DNA of 63,322 nt, the filler included, from Stramenopiles sp. TOSAG23-2 (taxonomy: Eukaryota), in the NCBI GenBank assembly GCA_900128395.1. It is 29 parts of 29 records of this genome, joined end to end, with 100 filler letters (N's around TTAATTAATTAA, not from the genome) between each part and the next. Parts side by side here need not be neighbours in the genome. Positions count along the whole stretch, not along the records: positions 15,514 to 23,167 come from LT650292.1; 28 more parts are not named here. One strand, given 5' to 3'. This document shows positions 4,137-42,839 of the stretch, piece after piece. Each line of letters starts with the position of its first letter. Position 1 is the first letter of the stretch. A model generated the notes under the pieces. That model was not told the DNA's origin and did not search any database. It was given only the letters and a program-made list of their open reading frames with translations. Made by a program: the position numbers and the translations under genes.

Positions 4137-6488
4137 TTACAAACCATAGATATGCTTCACTGCAACATCTTGCGCAAACTTTAATAAACTATTTAACGAG
4201 CTTATCTTCCCTTCAAAACCATCACCTGAGCATAAACTTTCTAATCCGACTAATAGACCTGCTAAAAATGCATCACCAGCCCCAACGGTTGATTTTAGTG
4301 TAACACCTTCTGGTATGATTGGTCTTTCAAATGTATTTGATTCTCCTACCCAACAAGAAATAATCATATTGCCTAAGCTAGTAGGTTCTCCTAATGCAGA
4401 ACGAAATTGTTGACGCACTATATTTATATCATCATTCATATGTAAAAATGCACCGGAGCTACCTAATGTAATTGCTACCAAAGCAACGTTGTATTTTAAA
4501 AATGCATTTGACAATATGTTCAAATCATCTATTGTTACCTTTGAAAAATCATCCTCTCCGTCGTCCACCAATTTTAAAAGGTGTGCTGGAATCAGCCCCT
4601 CATTGTCGTTTGCGAAGGCTATTGCTTCATGAATGTTTGCATGCACTACTGCAATATATGGTAAAGCATCGCTAACAATATCTTTTACATTTGGTCCAAT
4701 TGATGCTGATGTAGCACCATTCATGTCTACTGATATTGCTATATCAATCTTTGCCAATTCCATACACAAATCACTTAAGTTTGATCGTTGTAATTGTGTC
4801 AACTCAAAGGGATATCCTAAATTAATCCATAATAATTCTCGCAACATATCAATCCGCTTGCAACCCAAGCCTACTTCTCCTATTATCGAATCTTTATTCA
4901 ATAATGCAGTTGCACCTTGTATTACTATACATGCTCGTTCACCGCTATCATATACAGGCAAAAACGATACTTGTGTTGACGCTTCGTTTGTTCTGGCTAC
5001 GTAACGTGTACCAACATTATTTGCTTCCATTTCCTTTAATATGAAATCACCATCATTATCTACACCGATCAACGTTAACGCTTCGCAACGTACGTTATCA
5101 AATGATGCAACAGTTTTAGATGTGTTTGGTACTGAACCACCACAACGACGATGGAAGGATTTTGCAAAAACATGTGCAGTGCTATGATCAATAACATCTG
5201 TGCCTTCAATAATATAATCCACACATGTCAATCCAGCACAACAAATACCACTACGTTTTTCTACTGCAGGAGAAAACGGATATACAGACAATAAAAGTAA
5301 TTTTTCATTTGAATTATTATTAACAATATCTAATGTTGTATCTGGTACAATAAGTAGCTCCCGTGCATTATTATTTTGATAATCTACATCAATACCGTTA
5401 ATAATACCACTACCAAGCCAAACAACCATTGCACATGGCATATCTGTTTTCTTTAAGCTATATTTCTCACCTGGGTTCAATTCAATAGCTTCTCCATAAA
5501 AACGATTAAAAAAGGTTTGTAATCTTCTCCCCCACTGTCCCTCTTCTATTGTCTTACTAGGGTGAAAATATTTTTCTTTAAAATTTTCTACTGATGTTAG
5601 TGACATATTAACAACTTCATCGAACAACGACGCTTCATCTGGCATCCCTTTCAACATCGTTCGATCCCTTTCCTCTTTTAAATTCTCTTCACCTTCAATT
5701 TTTTGTCCTAATTGCCATGCTAATAAATTGCCATCATCTTGTGGCAACTGTACTTCGAACGTCAAATACGGTCCTGGAGCATGAATCACACCACATTCAA
5801 TGGTCCAACCACTAAATGGTTCGACATCGTAAACATTTAAATGGGTATACATATCGTCATCAATACCAAATCTACACATACATGAGCATAATGTTTCTTT
5901 ACTGGTCCCTGGTTTTATCCCGAGCCTTGTTTTTGCACCAACAACTTCTTTACCCTTTGGTAATGGTGGGAAAAAATATGCTTCCAACTTCCCATGTCCA
6001 CAACATCTACCATCGCATATATAACCATTATGCACATGACATGGAATTGGTGGGACTTCTTCCGGTGCTAATTTGCCGCTAAAAGTTGGTTGAGTTGCCC
6101 TTCCACCGATATCCAAAACTTTAATTAATGGCCAAGAATGCTTATATTTTCCTAGAACTTCAAGTTCAGCAATTTTCAAAATATCAGAGAATAGAGCTGT
6201 TTCATTATCGTCCATAAAAAATTTTGCAACGCCTTCGTTGTCTTTCATTATAGGATTTCCAGCCATAACAGTCGAACATAACCACCATTCAACTGGTACA
6301 TACCCACGTTCATCACCATGTTTTTCTTTATCAGAATTAGGTGCTAATATATCTCTCCCAAGATATGTATGCCGTCCCACCAAAGATGGTTTAGCCACTA
6401 AAATGCCAGAGTTGGACTTTAATGTATTTAATACTTTCTGGCGCAATTGCTTCTTACTATCCGCGACATCGCTTGCAATTGACGACAT
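4137..6488 (-). CDS. Fusion of a phosphomannose-isomerase-like cupin domain and a PfkB/ribokinase-family carbohydrate kinase
   Basis: N-half: HxH (IPCHVH), KLEAY, IHAPG, FEVQLPQD cupin metal motifs. C-half: AGLTCVD, GGSVPN, ITLGSSGA and anion-hole motif STVGAGDAFLAG. Confidence 0.75.
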   Translation of the reverse strand: MSSIASDVADSKKQLRQKVLNTLKSNSGILVAKPSLVGRHTYLGRDILAPNSDKEKHGDERGYVPVEWWLCSTVMAGNPIMKDNEGVAKFFMDDNETALFSDILKIAELEVLGKYKHSWPLIKVLDIGGRATQPTFSGKLAPEEVPPIPCHVHNGYICDGRCCGHGKLEAYFFPPLPKGKEVVGAKTRLGIKPGTSKETLCSCMCRFGIDDDMYTHLNVYDVEPFSGWTIECGVIHAPGPYLTFEVQLPQDDGNLLAWQLGQKIEGEENLKEERDRTMLKGMPDEASLFDEVVNMSLTSVENFKEKYFHPSKTIEEGQWGRRLQTFFNRFYGEAIELNPGEKYSLKKTDMPCAMVVWLGSGIINGIDVDYQNNNARELLIVPDTTLDIVNNNSNEKLLLLSVYPFSPAVEKRSGICCAGLTCVDYIIEGTDVIDHSTAHVFAKSFHRRCGGSVPNTSKTVASFDNVRCEALTLIGVDNDGDFILKEMEANNVGTRYVARTNEASTQVSFLPVYDSGERACIVIQGATALLNKDSIIGEVGLGCKRIDMLRELLWINLGYPFELTQLQRSNLSDLCMELAKIDIAISVDMNGATSASIGPNVKDIVSDALPYIAVVHANIHEAIAFANDNEGLIPAHLLKLVDDGEDDFSKVTIDDLNILSNAFLKYNVALVAITLGSSGAFLHMNDDINIVRQQFRSALGEPTSLGNMIISCWVGESNTFERPIIPEGVTLKSTVGAGDAFLAGLLVGLESLCSGDGFEGKISSLNSLLKFAQDVAVKHIYGL

Positions 6489-9603: not shown

Positions 9604-11403
9604 TTACAATTTACTCGTATTATTATTATTATTAACATCTAATGCTTCCCTTGCTACCTTTGTAATTTCAATACTAGCAAGTCGCATATCATTTGAATCA
9701 CCTACATCTAATGGTTTAACAAATGCAACTCTGCTTCTACGTTTGCCATCTGTCATTGAACATAATATATCCATACCATAACGATCTATAGATAATACGA
9801 CAACATCATCTATATCGTTACTTGGTAGACCAGAAAATGCTTTTGCTACTAATATCATAGCATCATGATGATCTTCGTTTAAATGTTTCACTGCATCTGG
9901 TCCACCACCATTAATAACAACTGGATCTGGTTCACTATCAATCAATTCATTTCGACCAAACCAACTCATTTCTCCAAAACCACCAATGTAACGTATCGTT
10001 TTCACTTTAAATTCCAAACAATGAAAATCATCAAATTTTATATAATATGCTTTAGGATGTTTGTTTAAAAATGAATGTACTTCTAAATCTGTTTTCATAA
10101 CTTGTTCTACGTCACATAATAATGTCACACGAGCAGTAGCAAGATTATCACCTTCGCCTTGTTCAACACTTACTAATATTGAAGCTCTTGGATCTTTTTT
10201 TATATTTGCATAATGTTCTGCTAATTTGCTAACGAATGTTATAATACGATCATTCCCAATACGTGCAAAATTTATAATACTACCATATGGATATCCATTT
10301 GTATGATGTATCGTTGACATTGTACCTTTTGATATAGATTCAATTAATGATTGTACTTTCTCTGCATGTGTTGGTTTTCGTGCTGTATTTTCAAAATAGG
10401 TTACAGCTGAACCGGAATTAGAACGCATTGTGCTTGGTACGGAATGTCCTTGACGTCTAGCTTTTACTAATTCAATTGTTGGTGCTTCGTTTTCATTATC
10501 TTTGTCATTTGATGATGAAGCACTCGTTCGATTCGGTTTTACAATTCGTTCTAGTTGCTGTAACGAATTGTTTTTTCTTCTTCCTGTTGTCGATATAGAC
10601 GACAAATGATGATGAGGATATAAATGGTGCTGTGTACAATTTCTTATTCTACCATTTTTCAATAATGGCATATTAAATGGTTGATATGTTAAAATAATTG
10701 CACGTCGTGATTGATTTGTTGAATTACGCATGGAACCATGAACTGTATGCGGGTTAAAAAAACATACACTTCCTGCTTTAGCAATGATTGGGACTGCATT
10801 TTGTTCATTGAAGCTATTTTTGTCTGTAAAAAATCCTGGAAACTCAAAATCTTCATTGACTCGTCCTGGTAATACACCTTTTGTATGACTTTTTTGAACA
10901 ATATGTAACGCACCATTTTCTAACGTAGCATCATCAAAATATACAATAACATTTGGTAACAAGTCGACATTATGCTTACAATCATATTCCCAATATGGAG
11001 AATCTTGGTGGTATTCGAATGCAGAGCCATGCGGTCGTTTTAAATTCAATTTAGAAGTCCATAAGGACACACCTCCATGTACCTGTCCTAATATTTGCTC
11101 CATCGGTTCAACCAATCTTTTACTATCAACTAATTGTTCAAATGTTTTATCAAAATGATGTATAGGTTCAATAACACGAACAACATTATATTCCTTTTCT
11201 TTATCATGTTCAAATTGTACAGTTGTATTGCCGTTGTATCTTAAATCAACAAATCGATTCCCATCAATAGTATATGGTTTATTTCCATACATATTATTAT
11301 TTATAAATAATTTTGCTGCATTGACCGAATTTTCAGCTGCTATTTTAAGTTGTTTCACTTCACTTTGATCAAATAAATTATATTTAATTAAATATCCATT
11401 TTT
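9604..11403 (-). CDS. Phytanoyl-CoA dioxygenase (PhyH)-family Fe/2OG oxygenase fused to HugZ-like split barrel + DUF2470; 5'-truncated
   Basis: NGYLIKYNLF (frame open upstream of 11358), YHQDSPYW (HxD), ENGALHIV, TVHGSMRN..RRA. Then GYPYGS, SKLAEHYANIKKDPRASIL, RYIGGFGEMSW, KHLNEDH, IDRYGMDI. Confidence 0.8.
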   Translation of the reverse strand, partial: KNGYLIKYNLFDQSEVKQLKIAAENSVNAAKLFINNNMYGNKPYTIDGNRFVDLRYNGNTTVQFEHDKEKEYNVVRVIEPIHHFDKTFEQLVDSKRLVEPMEQILGQVHGGVSLWTSKLNLKRPHGSAFEYHQDSPYWEYDCKHNVDLLPNVIVYFDDATLENGALHIVQKSHTKGVLPGRVNEDFEFPGFFTDKNSFNEQNAVPIIAKAGSVCFFNPHTVHGSMRNSTNQSRRAIILTYQPFNMPLLKNGRIRNCTQHHLYPHHHLSSISTTGRRKNNSLQQLERIVKPNRTSASSSNDKDNENEAPTIELVKARRQGHSVPSTMRSNSGSAVTYFENTARKPTHAEKVQSLIESISKGTMSTIHHTNGYPYGSIINFARIGNDRIITFVSKLAEHYANIKKDPRASILVSVEQGEGDNLATARVTLLCDVEQVMKTDLEVHSFLNKHPKAYYIKFDDFHCLEFKVKTIRYIGGFGEMSWFGRNELIDSEPDPVVINGGGPDAVKHLNEDHHDAMILVAKAFSGLPSNDIDDVVVLSIDRYGMDILCSMTDGKRRSRVAFVKPLDVGDSNDMRLASIEITKVAREALDVNNNNNTSKL

Positions 11404-15403: not shown

Positions 15404-15874
15404 AAAAATACAGNNNNNNNNNNNNNNNNNNNNNNNNNNNNNNNNNNNNNNNNNNNNTTAATTAATTAANNNNNNNNNNNNNNNNNNNNNNNNNNNNNNN
15501 NNNNNNNNNNNNNTTTCCAGCTGCCCAGCTTTGGCCAATATCTTTTCATTTAGAATTGCACGCAAAATTAGCCAAGATTGCCAGGTGCAGATGATTTGCA
15601 TGCTATGTTAATGTTAATGTACCTCCAGGACCCTGTCTATCAAATTCTGTATTTTTTTAGTACCATAGCAAGTATAATATAATATGAAGCTTAAGGAAAT
15701 GCATGCATCAAAATACGAAGAAGTTCTAGCTCCCTGCCGGGCCTGCCCTGGGCCTGCTGCTGTGTGGATCCTTTGGCTAGTGGGAGCGTAGCATTGTTGT
15801 GTATGATATCAAACCGATTTTAATTGGTTTTTAATAATTAGCATGGATATAGCATTGTATTTAAAACCGTGATG

Positions 15875-15989
15875 AGAAATATTTTCATCTAGAATTTGTG
15901 GCAAATTCCTTAAATTTATTTCACATATAATGGTGTTGCTATGCTAGTTATGTTAACAGGAGAATAGCACTGTTATTGGCATATGTGTT
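15875..15989 (+). repeat. 115-bp diverged direct repeat, copy 1
   Basis: Ungapped match to 17001-17115 (about 21 mismatches by manual count). Confidence 0.9.
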
Positions 15990-16135
15990 ATATATGGTGC
16001 TACGGTTGTACAACACTACGGTCCCAGATCCACCCACAATTAATATATTTATTGAATAAATACACAAACCAAAAAAGCAGACGGAAAGCATGCACATATA
16101 CACCACCGCGAAATAGTGCTGCAACACACAACATC

Positions 16136-16897
16136 ATGGCATCGTTGACAACAACAGAAGCGAGCTCTGATACAATCACAATAGGCAACAACCCCCAGTT
16201 TGCGATACAAGTGGATGTACAAAGAAGCAACGACAACATCATATTGCCTAAAGAAAGCTTCGAACGCATTCTAGATGTAGTAAAAAAATTGGAAGATAGT
16301 TTAAAAGAATCAGAATGCAAAGTAAAAAAACTTACCGTAGAAGCAGCAAAAGACAGATTATGTGCAAAAGAAGCAATAGATATATATAAATCAGTTATTA
16401 TTCAACGCAAATTTACAGAAGGCTATTGTTACAAATCGAATACTGGTAAAACTATTATACAAATAATAAAACGTATGGAATATGACCCTGTGAATAAAAA
16501 CGGAAAAGTAAAAGTAAAAGACATGTCAACAAACGAAGAGAAGACCGTTTCGTTTTCACAACATCTAAGCGAAGCTTTTGATGTCGGGGATTGGCAAGAG
16601 ACTATTGTGCTACGCGAATCGATCAATTACGATGGTATAACTATTTTATCTTTTAACACTACATGGCCGAACGAAGTGAATGCACGGAAGAGAAAAACAC
16701 CACCACAGTCGTCTTTGCTTATTGCGCCAAAAGGTGGTGAAATCACTCCAGAGAAGCGCGTAAAAAATGCAAGAGAGGGTGATGAAGAAGATGTATTTAA
16801 TAGTCCTAGATTTACAAAAAATGCTAGAGAGGGTGATGAAGAAGATGTATGTAATAGTCCTAGATTTACAAAAACCCCACCACCGCTATATTTGTGA
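16136..16897 (+). CDS. Hypothetical protein with short coiled coil and C-terminal 18-aa duplication
   Basis: Likely start MASLTT at 16136. KNAREGDEEDV(F/C)NSPRFT x2 (54-bp tandem at ~16762-16874). Confidence 0.65.
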   Translation: MASLTTTEASSDTITIGNNPQFAIQVDVQRSNDNIILPKESFERILDVVKKLEDSLKESECKVKKLTVEAAKDRLCAKEAIDIYKSVIIQRKFTEGYCYKSNTGKTIIQIIKRMEYDPVNKNGKVKVKDMSTNEEKTVSFSQHLSEAFDVGDWQETIVLRESINYDGITILSFNTTWPNEVNARKRKTPPQSSLLIAPKGGEITPEKRVKNAREGDEEDVFNSPRFTKNAREGDEEDVCNSPRFTKTPPPLYL

Positions 16898-17000
16898 TGT
16901 TCAGTAAAAACATCGCATATTATTGAAAATCTAACTTTTGAAGTTCTGCTAGAGTGGTTGCATCGCTGTTTGATTTATGCATTATTATATTATTATAAGA

Positions 17001-17115
17001 AGAAATATTTTCATCTGGAAGGATGAGCAAATTCCTTAAAAGTACTTCTCTTGTAATGGTATTGCTATGTTAATTATGTTAACAGCCTAATAGCATTGTT
17101 ATTGGCAAATGTGTT
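17001..17115 (+). repeat. 115-bp diverged direct repeat, copy 2
   Basis: Matches 15875-15989; lies upstream of the primase-helicase gene. Confidence 0.9.
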
Positions 17116-17390
17116 TTGTTTAGGCGTAGATATATATGGTTTTCCGACTGTAATCTACGCATAGATATTTTGAGTTGGGTTACGCACAAATGTATCATCA
17201 AGTATACATATTAGTATACCATTTTGTTGTATTTTGATAGGAATATACTAACCTTGATTATGTATAGTGCTAATCCTATAATAATTATTGGAGTCAGAAA
17301 TCGGAATAAAAAACAAGAACTATATCCCATGCAGGTAAAAGTTACAAAGTATACTACTTATAAAAATACTGATAGATCAATACAAAATTT

Positions 17391-20300
17391 ATGAATTCAA
17401 AAAGAAATTTACAGAGCGAAGATGCCAGCACAACAGCTTCAAAGAAGCAGAAAATACGTGTTCCTGAACTCTTAAAGTCGAATGGCACATACCCAAATGC
17501 AAGTAAGAATAATGATGTTGTTGACAATGGTCGTAATTACAAGAATAATTTTTACTCAAAGGATGGACTTCAGTGGTATTATCATGAAGCAGATGTCCCG
17601 CGGTTGGAGGACGGCGAATTTATGTTTGCGAGAGATAAGAAAACATACAAATCTTTCTGCAAAAGTACATGGGAGATTATATACAAGAAAATTGAAGAAG
17701 GTTATTCAATAAAAAAATTTTGCCATTATTATGAGCAACGAAAGGAAAATACCCCTGTCGTTATGTTTTTTGATATTGATGAAAAGGTTGGTCGAAGAGA
17801 GGAGCATAACCCCACAGTATATTTAAAACAATTTAGAGCAGGGCTTTTGTGTCTTGGTATACAAGAAGAAATGGTTATCCAAAGTGCTTGTGGTCAAGTA
17901 GGTGGTGGATACAAATTATCTTATCACATAACAATTCCGCGTGTCCAGTTTAGAACATTGAAACATTTGAAGACATGGGTTCAAAAACGTGCAAAGAGGG
18001 GGGGCGTCTACCAAATTGGGGGGATTGTCATCGACACTACGGTATATTGCAAAGGGTACTGGCGCTTACCACATTGTGCAAAAATCGGTTCGGAGCGCGT
18101 TTTGGAGTTGGAGAAAAAGCAACACATGGATTTCGCAACATTTCGATGCTTAAGCATTCATTATACTAGCAATGTAGGACGTGTTATTGAACAAGATCTT
18201 AGCTACGTACAAGAGAAACCCCGACTGCAAGACGATAAAATTCAAAAATCCACCACAGTCCTTAAACAGCTATCTGATGCAGATAAAAGGTTGTACGGTG
18301 TTGAAGGTGATTTTTATTTCAGAGATCGGCATATGGGTGGTCTGAGGTACGAAGCAAAAAGTGATACTTGGTTATGTCCTTCTGGGGAGTGGCATCTGCG
18401 GAACCGTTGCTTTGTTGTGAATGAAAACAATGTTTGGTGTTATGCCTGTAAACAACGAATCAACATTTTCCCGACTGTCCCTGCTAACATTTTACCAGAA
18501 AATTTATTTGTTGGTACAGATGAGTGTTTTGCAAAAGCATTGTTATATTTCTATGGGGTAAACTACATTTACTCAAATGATAAGTTATATCACTTCAATG
18601 GGGACATATGGGAAGATCCGAAGATCGCCATACACACAGATCTTGAAAAGTTATACAACAAATTAGAGGAAATGGCATACAAAAGGTCAGGACATCAAAG
18701 AAATTCTGAAGTAAAACCAGCGCTATCCGAAGCAGACGATAATGGTATGATGGATCTAGAAAGGGAAATAAAAAACAAGGAATCAAGGCTGGTACCAACT
18801 GCTGAACTTGAAGAAAATGTTGCAAGAGCAAAGGAGGTTGAAAGAAATGCACGAAAAGCTTTGTCAAAAGCAACTGATGAAGTTGCTTCCTTGAAACTTG
18901 TTGCACTGAAGAAAGTCGCGAAAATCGATTCAGAGATTGCAAAGGGGGATTCTGATACCAGAAAGGCGCTAGAATTGGATCGTAAAGCTTTAAAAAGTGC
19001 CGCAGCACTTGATCTCGCGAAAGCGAAGCGCAAAAAGTTCGCTGCTGGCGATACTTTAAAAGAAGCTGTTACAAATACAATGCAGTCACTAATAATTTTA
19101 GGAGAAGCACAAAAAGAAGTTAAGGCACTAAAAAAAGAGTTAGAGAAAGTGCGAAAGGAGAAAGCAAAATCGATGAAGGTTGCTGTCGAGAAGCAAGCAT
19201 TTATGGTATCATCGAAGGAGGATGCTTGCGAAGCACTACTACGAAGAATTCGACGGTTACAACAAGTTCCACATAAGAGAAGAGTAACAGAGGATTTTTT
19301 TATGTTGTGTAGACGCTATCTCAAAACTGATATAAAGATGGACATAAATGAAGAATCGCGTGAAGTAACTCATTTCAAGAATGGGTGTGTTAATTTGCGT
19401 ACAGGCGAGTTCCGAAAACGCGTGAAAACAGATTTTGTCACATGCTGCCTAGATTACGATTTTGTGGAAATGAACCCTGATCTCCAAAAAATTCAAGATG
19501 TGCTGAAAAGGAGTCTGCGCATGGTTCAACCAAAAAAGAAGCAATACAATTTAATGTTGGATTGGCTAGGATACTGTTTGACTGGTCACACCAAAGAGAA
19601 AAAGTTTAAAACATTACTTGGTTACACCGCTGGGAATGCTAAGTCAACCATGATTGAAATTATGAAGAAATGCTTCCCGATTTATGTGCTAGAAATTGGA
19701 CAGGATGCGTTTGACAGAGAGAATAAGAATTGGGCCAAGTCGTTTTTTCCTCTGTTGACTCATGCATACCGACTTGTTTACATGGAAGAATTTGGTGAAA
19801 AAACAATTGATAAGCAACGCTTGAAACGCTTCGTAGATGGTAAAGAATTTCCGTTAAAGGTTATTTATGTCGCAGGGGAAAGGAATGCCATATTACACTC
19901 AAAATTAATGGCGAATACAAACCGCGATCCAAACATTCGAAGCGCCACAAATGGGATTTTTCGGCGTGCGTTGGGACAATTTTACACCTCTCGTTTTGTA
20001 GATGACGGCACAGAGGATCCCTCGAAACATATTTATAAAGATGATAAAACGTTTATGAATAAATTTGATAAAGATGATTGGAAATTAGCATGGTTTTACC
20101 TCTTGCTCCCACGAGCCAAATCGTATTGTGAAGTAGGCTTAAAAATCCCCCCAGAAAATATGCGAATCATGCGTTCAGCTGTAGAAGATTACGATGAATA
20201 TGCACCAGTTTTTGAAAAGTTTGAGGTGACCAATAACAATTTGGATCTTGTAAGTAAAACTGAAATAATGAATTTTTGCGAGCAGCAAGAGGATTTGCGT

Positions 20301-20507
20301 CGATTTGGATGGCGTGGTGTTTTGGCTGCAATGAAACAGAAAGGTGTCACGTATGATAGCCAAAAAAGATGCACCATCAACGGAACAGCACGAAAAGGTT
20401 TTTGCGTCGGCATTAAGTTGCGAGGTAAGGGTTCACTGGATGATGATATTGCAGATAGGGGGGGGAAACTATTAATTATGATAAATTTGGATATTTTAAA
20501 TGCCTAA
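17391..20507 (+). CDS. D5-like primase-helicase (AEP/PrimPol primase + Zn finger + D5_N + SF3 helicase + probable winged helix)
   Basis: AEP motifs MFFDIDE, KLSYHI, IDTTVY..WRLPHCAK. Zn ligands CPSGEWH...CYAC. D5_N LYHFNGDIW...FKNGCVNLRTGEFR. Walker A GYTAGNAKST, Walker B RLVYMEE, motif C KLMANTN, Arg finger GIFRR. Confidence 0.9.
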   Translation: MNSKRNLQSEDASTTASKKQKIRVPELLKSNGTYPNASKNNDVVDNGRNYKNNFYSKDGLQWYYHEADVPRLEDGEFMFARDKKTYKSFCKSTWEIIYKKIEEGYSIKKFCHYYEQRKENTPVVMFFDIDEKVGRREEHNPTVYLKQFRAGLLCLGIQEEMVIQSACGQVGGGYKLSYHITIPRVQFRTLKHLKTWVQKRAKRGGVYQIGGIVIDTTVYCKGYWRLPHCAKIGSERVLELEKKQHMDFATFRCLSIHYTSNVGRVIEQDLSYVQEKPRLQDDKIQKSTTVLKQLSDADKRLYGVEGDFYFRDRHMGGLRYEAKSDTWLCPSGEWHLRNRCFVVNENNVWCYACKQRINIFPTVPANILPENLFVGTDECFAKALLYFYGVNYIYSNDKLYHFNGDIWEDPKIAIHTDLEKLYNKLEEMAYKRSGHQRNSEVKPALSEADDNGMMDLEREIKNKESRLVPTAELEENVARAKEVERNARKALSKATDEVASLKLVALKKVAKIDSEIAKGDSDTRKALELDRKALKSAAALDLAKAKRKKFAAGDTLKEAVTNTMQSLIILGEAQKEVKALKKELEKVRKEKAKSMKVAVEKQAFMVSSKEDACEALLRRIRRLQQVPHKRRVTEDFFMLCRRYLKTDIKMDINEESREVTHFKNGCVNLRTGEFRKRVKTDFVTCCLDYDFVEMNPDLQKIQDVLKRSLRMVQPKKKQYNLMLDWLGYCLTGHTKEKKFKTLLGYTAGNAKSTMIEIMKKCFPIYVLEIGQDAFDRENKNWAKSFFPLLTHAYRLVYMEEFGEKTIDKQRLKRFVDGKEFPLKVIYVAGERNAILHSKLMANTNRDPNIRSATNGIFRRALGQFYTSRFVDDGTEDPSKHIYKDDKTFMNKFDKDDWKLAWFYLLLPRAKSYCEVGLKIPPENMRIMRSAVEDYDEYAPVFEKFEVTNNNLDLVSKTEIMNFCEQQEDLRRFGWRGVLAAMKQKGVTYDSQKRCTINGTARKGFCVGIKLRGKGSLDDDIADRGGKLLIMINLDILNA

Positions 20508-20688
20508 AATACCTAAAATGCCTAAAATTCTACAAACTCATTTCATACAGTTCCATATTACTAAGTTCATTTCATATTGATTATCGCCTGGTATGTTAAT
20601 AAGCAATGCTTTAAGGTCGGTGTATAAAAATTAAAATTAATATAAAAAAGTTTATCAAAATATAGGCATTTTAGACATTTTAGGCATA
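20498..20688. repeat. Two inverted arrays of three 9-bp units flanking an AT-rich core (candidate replication origin)
   Basis: TGCCTAAAA/TACCTAAAA/TGCCTAAAA at 20501-20527 and ATATAGGCA/TTTTAGACA/TTTTAGGCA at 20660-20686. Confidence 0.8.
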
Positions 20689-20756
20689 CTCATACATGGT
20701 GTAAGAGTCACAGGCCGTGAGTCAACATCCAAACTCTCCACACTGAACTGAATGCA

Positions 20757-21101
20757 TCACCTATGTACCAACAGTCTATACTCATATGCGGAGGACCTGG
20801 AGCCTGTAATCGGATTTCGTACGTTGATTTTATTTGAATGAATTGCACATGTTACAGCAGGATCTTTAATGACAATCCGAAATACTTTAATAACGTCATT
20901 TACATGTATGGGCTTCAGCAACCGCCGCTTCAATCGCCCTTTGAACAACTTGATCAAATACAGTCTATGCCTCTTAATGAAACCAAGACCAGGATATAAA
21001 TTGGATTTCCGAATAACTGTTTTAGTGTCATGCAGCCCATGAAAACCAATGGAGTGCGCAAATGAATTTACTAATCGCACTTTCTGTTCTTTAATATTCA
21101 T
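20757..21101 (-). CDS. Small basic protein, paralog A (putative DNA-binding)
   Basis: 114-aa K/R-rich ORF with upstream TATATAA; homologous to 22567-22880. Confidence 0.75.
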   Translation of the reverse strand: MNIKEQKVRLVNSFAHSIGFHGLHDTKTVIRKSNLYPGLGFIKRHRLYLIKLFKGRLKRRLLKPIHVNDVIKVFRIVIKDPAVTCAIHSNKINVRNPITGSRSSAYEYRLLVHR

Positions 21102-21466
21102 CCTATACTACATTCAAAGCAATTCTTATATACATGTGTTTTATTTGCGACTTTTTATCACTTTCCCAAAGTCGGCTACCAGAACATCAATATGATAGCA
21201 TAATGTCAAGCCACAATGTTATACATGCATACAAAGTACCTAACAATTTTACCTCAATGCATCGATTTTCCATTTTTATCACATCATGTTGTACTTCTAT
21301 ATTTTATTCTTAATTTTATTCTTAATTTTATCCTGACCTAATTCAAACTAATCAAAAGTTACAACAACTAATTGACATATTTTAAAAGACGATTACAGTA
21401 ATAGTGCCTCCACACACACCTTAAAAGTCTATATATATTCAGGGCGCAGGTGGATATATATGACTT

Positions 21467-41850: not shown

Positions 41851-42548
41851 ATTTAAAGTTGTATGTTGAATAATCCAATTAAGTTCTTGATGTGCTAAAA
41901 TCCGATTTCCAGCAAACATTAGATATTGTATTACTTGGCATCTTAAAAATGTTCCAGGCCCAAGAGTATTTAAACATGACTTTAAACTTTGCAACTGTCG
42001 TTTCCAAAAATCTGTACCTTCCACTTCGTTTACTACAAGAGATGCGTCGAACATTTCAGCTACTAATGATGGTGCAGCAAGTTCAAATCGTACATTTGCT
42101 TTTTCATCAAGAACTTGTTGATTAATTCGATAACATTGAATAGATTCAGACAATATATTCAATTTATTGCAAACTTTTTTACTACAAGAGATGCGTCGAA
42201 CATTTCAGCTACTAATGATGGTGCAGCAAGTTCAAATCGTACATTTGCTTTTTCATCAAGAACTTGTTGATTAATTCGATAACATTGAATAGATTCAGAC
42301 AATATATTCAATTTATTGCAAACTTTCTCGTTCACTTCTTTTCTTGTTGTATTGAATGGCATAGAAATCTGTTTTGCTTCAGATAAACCAGTTATTTCGG
42401 TTAAAAGATTGAATTCTCTAATATAAACATTTTTATATTTTTCCGGTTCAAATCCAGTTACATAAGAGCTTGGTTGATTGAATGTTTGAGACGATACAAT
42501 ATTACTAGACAATAATAGAATAATATTAATAATTATTATAATTAACAT
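41851..42548 (-). CDS. Secreted protein of unknown function, frame broken by a 149-bp tandem duplication
   Basis: Hydrophobic signal peptide; NILSESIQCY...FDASLVV appears in two frames. Confidence 0.55.
42031..42326. repeat. Near-perfect tandem duplication, period 149 bp
   Basis: 42031-42177 repeated at 42180-42326. Confidence 0.95.
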
Positions 42549-42588: not shown

Positions 42589-42839
42589 AATGATATCGTT
42601 ATTATTATTAGCAACAGAAACTAAATTCTCTCTAGATATATATATTTATATATTCACTATTATTATTATTCATGAAACAAGAAATAGAATTATTAAAAGG
42701 AAAGAAGTATATAATGATATCGTTATTATTATTAGCAACAGAAACTAAATTCTCTCTAGATATATATATTTATATATTCACTATTATTATTATTCATGAA
42801 ACAAGAAATAGAATTATTAAAAGGAAAGAAGTATATAAT
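42589..42839. repeat. Near-perfect tandem duplication, period 124 bp
   Basis: AATGATATCGTT...AAGAAGTATAT twice. Confidence 0.95.

Follow-up and report, generated by a model that had tools for sequence, protein, structure and literature searches.

Does the block of short opposed repeats at the end of a primase-helicase gene in the assembly of Stramenopiles sp. TOSAG23-2 act as an origin of replication, and which protein would read it? The assembly is eukaryotic and fragmented (32.8 Mb in 9146 contigs), and the window, by which we mean the whole 63,322-nucleotide stretch of DNA that was analysed, consists of contigs strung together with N linkers; near matches to its sequence come from marine runs, and its gene content points to a heterotrophic protist, probably a stramenopile. 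The helicase gene and the arrays both lie on a single 7.65-kb contig, C2458, the features of which are given below with positions counted along the window.

15514–23167, no strand: whole contig C2458 (LT650292.1), 7.65 kb
15983–16897: 304-aa ORF, lying between 115-bp direct repeats
17391–20507, plus strand: 1038-aa primase-helicase, composed of an AEP domain (C962R-like), a coiled-coil insert, D5_N, an SF3 ATPase and a winged helix
20256–20408, plus strand: part coding for the predicted winged helix, residues 956–1006, pLDDT above 90
20458–20465, plus strand: G8 run, one G shorter in a 97%-identical contig from run X2
20486–20498, minus strand: weak and uncertain extra inverted copy, outside the left array
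20500–20528, plus strand: left array, three 9-bp units with the consensus ATGCCTAAA, period 9
20528–20659, no strand: core, 132 bp, 25% GC
20660–20687, minus strand: right array, three 9-bp units in inverted orientation, period 9
20757–21101, minus strand: 114-aa basic protein (24 K+R, 5 D+E) combining a helix-turn-helix with a hairpin, its gene converging on the arrays
21467–21889: 140-aa ORF
21894–22355, minus strand: gene of the RNase T2 family (Pfam E 1.4e-9); the contig that bears it is virus-like
22567–22872, minus strand: paralog of the 114-aa protein (42% identity), its 5′ end replaced at about 22867 by a fragment of an LRR gene on the other strand

The sequence-only reading of this locus had described three tandem 9-mers, the first containing the helicase stop codon, facing three inverted copies 132 bp away, and every one of these details was confirmed. 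The left units are TGCCTAAAA (20501–20509), TACCTAAAA (20510–20518) and again TGCCTAAAA (20519–20527), while the right units, read on the minus strand, carry two mismatches (20660–20668), one mismatch (20669–20677) and none (20678–20686). The motif TCATTTCATA is present twice in the core as had been reported, at 20538–20547 and 20567–20576. Three copies facing three inverted copies were found in one of 315 tiles of the whole window, namely this block, and in none of 430 dinucleotide shuffles of 20401–20810. The 11-mer alone gave seven matches at up to one mismatch where 3.55 were expected, and 9 of 100 shuffles also reached seven; the significance therefore sits in the arrangement and not in the word, which by itself is not rare. 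The weak inverted copy outside the left array has a parallel in SaPI5, where inverted copies are also found within an arm, according to the available text of 10.64898/2026.10.17.759575.

The core had been called AT-rich, and at 25% GC it does fall below the contig (37%) and among the lowest 3% of 131-bp windows, but nearby intergenic DNA is at 29–31% GC, so that the margin is small and the AT-richness modest. The most AT-rich part is the right third of the core (20620–20661, 9.5% GC), and the core as a whole is about twice the length commonest in relatives (55–77 bp). Strand skew, which had been named as a possible check on the origin, gives no independent support, because the cumulative GC-skew peak at about 20500 falls where the direction of the genes changes.

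Overlap of the stop codon with the array was considered as a functional feature and rejected. The TAA at 20505–20507 does lie within the first unit, but the overlap is absent in all 15 relatives that have downstream arrays and in the 97%-identical variant, a 3839-bp X2 contig that covers 17204–21005 with 113 differences from the window. In this variant the stop falls at 20473–20475, before the array, because the G8 run has one G fewer, and the indels listed for it leave the repeat units intact. The overlap is thus incidental.

The protein encoded beside the block has the architecture of SaPI5 PriRep and poxvirus D5, including the C-terminal winged helix. Its N-terminus is AEP_C962R-like (atlas scores 0.94–0.97), the D5_N match is weak, and the ATPase is of the P4/D5-type SF3 group. 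We take GYTAGNAKST at 744 to be the Walker A motif, LVYMEEF at 795 to be Walker B, and the arginine pair to be RR 858–859; the NAKS form of Walker A is not a sign of decay, because it is common to P0001–P0003, which are among the nearest helicases to that of the window. An AlphaFold2 model of residues 594–1038, built from 95 sequences, has a pLDDT of 90 and ends in a winged helix, the wing hairpin of which begins T-Y-D-S-Q-K-R (987–993). This predicted winged helix is the proposed reader of the iterons. The best structural matches of the model are poxvirus D5/E5 and ASFV C962R, at sequence identities of 13–21%, and comparison with SaPI5 PriRep (PDB 7om0), in an alignment that includes the C-terminal domain, gave a Z of 23.6 and an rmsd of 6.6 over 344 aligned residues.

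Two observations on the variable parts of this protein may be recorded here. A long alanine/lysine-rich coiled-coil insert (18700–19200, residues ~440–600) is present in P0002 and P0003 as well, and is missing from P0001 and others. The helicase half of P0001 is ~70% identical to that of the window, while its N-terminal primase part resembles, by eye, that of a second helicase of the assembly, on contig C1557, a pattern suggestive of primase-domain swapping.

A search for analogous arrays beside homologous helicases had been proposed as a check on the origin, and its outcome was positive. The helicase family is large, with 227 representatives at E up to 1e-30. Loci were taken from pattern scans of viral contigs, from one metagenome locus and from the assembly itself, and 30 distinct loci with a profile score of at least 300 were counted, a set that stands apart from the window's nearest helicases (P0001–P0003 and P0011). 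Matches scoring below 300, same-contig duplicates (L128, L131, L138 and repeats among L148–L166) and the near-identical L164 were dropped; L070, the one family member among 29 stretches from a scan of genome contigs, was left out because only 15 bp follow its stop. With a detector that allows one mismatch, opposed arrays were found within ~225 bp of the helicase gene at 23 of the 30 loci, 15 of them starting 8–153 bp after the stop and 8 ending 47–224 bp before the start. Counted by window, this corresponds to 23/59 helicase flanks, against 7/252 control windows placed at other genes in these loci. Three of the seven control matches are additional origin-like blocks in L048, another is an array in L038, and another is a collagen-like repeat (L037). 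An exact-word version gave 14/23 against 4/301. The 30 loci amount to about 15 lineages and so are not independent points.

Among the seven misses, L067 and L156 are cut by contig ends, L161 has arrays that are visible by eye only, L038 has its array ~1.1 kb away, and L136, L132 and L037 gave no opposed arrays with the detector. The reverse test agrees in direction: only L063, of 32 viral loci that carry the tandem word, has an opposed arm, positioned 10 bp behind a homologous helicase, and the other 31 had neither. Locus searches with protein patterns returned 0, 1 and 3 loci, and the region after the stop was reached only in two distant matches from outside the family.

Individual relatives illustrate how the layout recurs. 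On contig C1557 of the same assembly (10678–10820, or 5680–5820 of L005), opposed TGTCTAAA arrays with the word TGTCTA lie just before a primase-helicase gene whose product is 34–35% identical to that of the window and has the wing YNSQ; the array is upstream of this helicase, and none was found downstream of it. Contig C1829 (7007–7126, L145), which bears an A32 gene, has opposed ACGAAGGA arrays with the word ACGAAGG directly before a 976-aa primase-helicase-like gene. Locus L048 contains three copies of a CCTCCACC origin-like block and a fourth block (1020–1175) with a different word (GCGAAAA). Many of the family loci carry genes of polinton-like viruses: an A32-like ATPase, recombinase-like or capsid-like gene was present at 22 of the 30 loci, and A32-like genes stand beside the helicase homologs at 17, both counts including seed sequences of profiles built from the same 30 loci. 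The A32 assignment was confirmed by Pfam in L046, and the recombinase label in relatives was confirmed weakly. The capsid label had no Pfam, NCBIfam or PDB sequence match in the relatives, and is our assumption, made from size and position.

The words themselves differ among loci (TGCCTA, TGTCTA, AGTCCC, TTTCCC, CACCCT, TGGAGC, ACCTCC and others), and the likeness of words shows no trend with ATPase identity (r −0.06). A layout that is kept constant beside the same gene while its word changes suggests that this is most likely the site where the helicase binds to start copying. L063 and L046 share both TGCCTA and the wing YDSQ with the window, yet on the ATPase tree they belong to the other main clade, where the helicases beside them have different words (L063 is 34% identical); L133 and L163 share AAGTCCC and the wing Y[DN]KE. 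Over 15 lineages, however, the link between wing and word is weak: a dipeptide picked with the data already in view gave p 0.014, and scoring by BLOSUM gave p 0.25. Of 260 sliding positions, the ten best do not include the wing, and the words of the four YxKD helicases are unlike one another.

We therefore consider it probable, at roughly three chances in four, that the arrays are iterons and that a replication module derived from a polinton-like virus has its origin in this 190-bp block, read by the helicase wing. The origin proposed earlier is thereby supported, its function being judged by comparison with known systems. The primase-helicase would hexamerise, and its C-terminal winged helices would use their wing hairpins to read successive TGCCTA words ~9 bp apart; one hexamer would be loaded on each arm without a loader. 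The DNA beside or between the arms would be opened, most easily at 20620–20661, after which the fused AEP domain would prime and a host or helper-virus polymerase would extend. The copy in the window may still be active.

This iteron-origin design is established for SaPIs. In the available text on PriRep5, bases of the iterons are contacted by the wing, and binding is lost in wing mutants (10.64898/2026.10.17.759575); in that on SaPI Reps, head-to-head loading, which the sequence-only reading had assumed for SF3 initiators, is not settled, nor is the orientation of the hexamers (PMC9371898). SaPI/PICI PriRep5 (PDB 7om0, 7ola) joins a fused primase, an SF3 ATPase and a C-terminal winged helix as in the window, and the SaPI origin, as far as the same two sources describe it, also has opposed short words around an AT-rich centre next to the gene, the word being specific to the element. 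The block conforms to the SaPI/P4 type in having at least two opposed iterons per side (3+3), an AT-rich centre and an adjoining gene for a winged-helix helicase. It differs in having 3+3 units that follow a strict 9-bp tandem along 190 bp, compared with 6–12 scattered iterons over ~300 bp in the SaPI accounts available, and whereas those accounts place the SaPI origin always downstream, the block precedes the gene in 8 of the 23 relatives. The window also has a eukaryotic-virus context and a C962R-type AEP, and its candidate origin is known from sequence comparison. The element would work like a SaPI/PICI without being a member: the assembly is eukaryotic, the contig yielded no integrase, and primase matches in a phage collection reached only 22–26% identity.

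A second candidate reader is encoded 70 bp from the block, and we consider it unlikely, though it is the alternative with most to commend it, that this 114-aa protein binds the arrays or the TCATTTCATA pair, alone or with the helicase, as a separate initiator or as a repressor of the origin or of the flanking genes. The gene converges on the block, the model is confident (pLDDT 91), and the predicted fold resembles, by weak matches, the DNA-binding domain at the C-terminus of origin-binding proteins of the UL9 type, from herpesviruses and giant viruses. The top VIA row was residues 637–807 of HSV-1's origin-binding protein (Z 4.7, rmsd 3.7, 110 aligned), but this Z does not rise above background and is equalled by unrelated rows; BFVD returned giant-virus proteins with TM ~0.6, some of them named origin-binding protein (E 7e-4, TM 0.63), whereas PDB Foldseek, Pfam and PHROG gave no match and atlas scores were below 0.8. 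Unlike UL9, the protein is free-standing and without an SF2 helicase; no longer form of it was found, which is weak evidence, and it had no profile match to the helicase. The longer core would offer room for extra sites, and the protein may act at this block. Because its gene is present at none of the 30 family loci, 23 of which have arrays, it is not a general reader of the arrays. Its five homologs lie on short contigs, the third copy of the gene, on C3368 (673 bp), is accompanied by no opposed array that could be seen, and a TCAT-type inner motif, chosen after the fact, is found in 9 of 25 cores, eight of which are without the 114-aa gene.

Less probable again is that the arms pair with each other, to form either a cruciform or stem-loop origin in the DNA, like that of plasmid pRN1, or an RNA hairpin that ends convergent transcripts. 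The arms are 80% complementary over 44 nt, with a strand fold of −42.4 kcal/mol (z −3.56), the block lies between convergent genes, and the L134 block is a near-perfect palindrome. Like the window, pRN1 has a primase-SF3-winged-helix gene (orf904) with an inverted structure just downstream, and the available text on pRN1 describes this stem-loop 3′ of the AEP-SF3 gene as essential for replication and its integrity as important (PMC4234260). But any opposed array folds, the loop would be 100–130 nt, and the arms of relatives are unequal (5 against 4 copies in L046 and L063), copy number and spacing varying among them. In 8 of the 23 relatives a terminator role is excluded because the arrays precede the start codon, and tandem words with a long spacer, unlike the pRN1 structure, point to protein sites. 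More improbable than pairing is that the block serves the element as a site of recombination or attachment, or as a repeat at a genome end, although polinton-like viruses frequently have tyrosine recombinases and their terminal inverted repeats have been proposed as both recombination substrate and origin, in the available text of PMC11296320. No recombinase was found on contig C2458, and the arrays follow the helicase, not a recombinase-like gene, and are internal in most relatives. The cores used by tyrosine recombinases have short spacers, not 60–130 bp, which also counts against such a site. The smallest chance belongs to the insertion of a MITE, or another small transposon, where the helicase gene ends; the MITE had been raised by the sequence-only reading itself. 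The inverted ends of such an insertion would lie ~190 bp apart as observed, but a whole-contig DNA search, of a kind that skips simple repeats, turned up no further copy of the block elsewhere in the assembly, the other matches of the tandem pattern, on four contigs, are on one strand only, the flanks have no target duplication, and the layout tracks the gene family across unrelated contigs.

The element to which the putative origin belongs is a replication module of the polinton-like-virus type, and could be part of a virus, an integrated remnant or a replicon without a capsid. AEP-SF3 genes are described in polinton-like viruses in the available text of PMC4642659, and the helicase family is shared with them; as origins, the available text of PMC11296320 proposes their terminal inverted repeats and not internal iteron arrays. 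Unlike those viruses, contig C2458, possibly itself a fragment, yielded no capsid, packaging ATPase or integrase/recombinase gene, and no terminal inverted repeats were seen when it was compared with itself. Three A32 genes are present on other contigs of the same assembly, and the one capsid-like query used had no match there. Run X4, a second sample of the study that produced X1, is identical to the window over 20448–20707, and since X4 was possibly used in the assembly, this identity supports a stable association with the host only weakly. Contig depths in run X2, 41 over the helicase against 5–20 on some flanks, are not readable as copy number.

Several further features of the contig and window were observed. 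The direct repeats of 115 bp (82%) on either side of the 304-aa ORF lie at 15875–15989 and 17001–17115; a further copy is present on C1190 (L014), and one X2 contig fuses 15856 to 17056. Searches with the 304-aa and 140-aa ORFs yielded no assignment for either. An 88-bp piece of the RNase T2 gene recurs at the end of C6977 at 94%. Positions 22867–23167 hold a fragment of a multi-copy membrane-LRR gene family, 87–90% identical to C1279 and C8703. At ~22867 this fragment meets, in antisense orientation, the second small gene's 5′ end; this may be a true junction or an amplification chimera, and none of the pieces listed spans it. Exact tandem duplications of 149 and 124 bp at 42029–42326 and 42589–42839 are probably assembly artefacts. 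Among host genes, the 783-aa product of 4137–6488 (minus strand) is presumably a fusion of a cupin/isomerase-type part with a PfkB-type kinase, and the ORF at 9604–11358 (minus strand) presumably a fusion of a PhyH-type dioxygenase with a HugZ/HutZ-type domain, both by eye.

A wider version of the iteron-origin reading is doubtful, ranking in probability just ahead of the alternatives weighed above. It would hold that the word is set by two or three wing residues (YDSQ for TG[CT]CTA, Y[DN]KE for AGTCCC) at internal, SaPI-style iteron origins general to D5-type polinton-like viruses, and that a free-standing UL9-like domain encoded next to a lengthened core makes the present locus a two-protein origin, in which satellite-type iterons are combined with an initiator of the herpes/giant-virus type, possibly in a capsid-less replicon. 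A literature search that covered subscription journals thinly found no paper that describes internal iteron origins for polinton-like viruses. For those of these viruses that lack a protein-primed polymerase, the block and its 23 relatives offer defined candidates for the origin, paired with their helicases and with words that can be exchanged, so that binding to cognate and non-cognate words can be tested directly. If the iteron-origin reading is true, a design known from bacterial satellites would extend to small eukaryotic DNA viruses.
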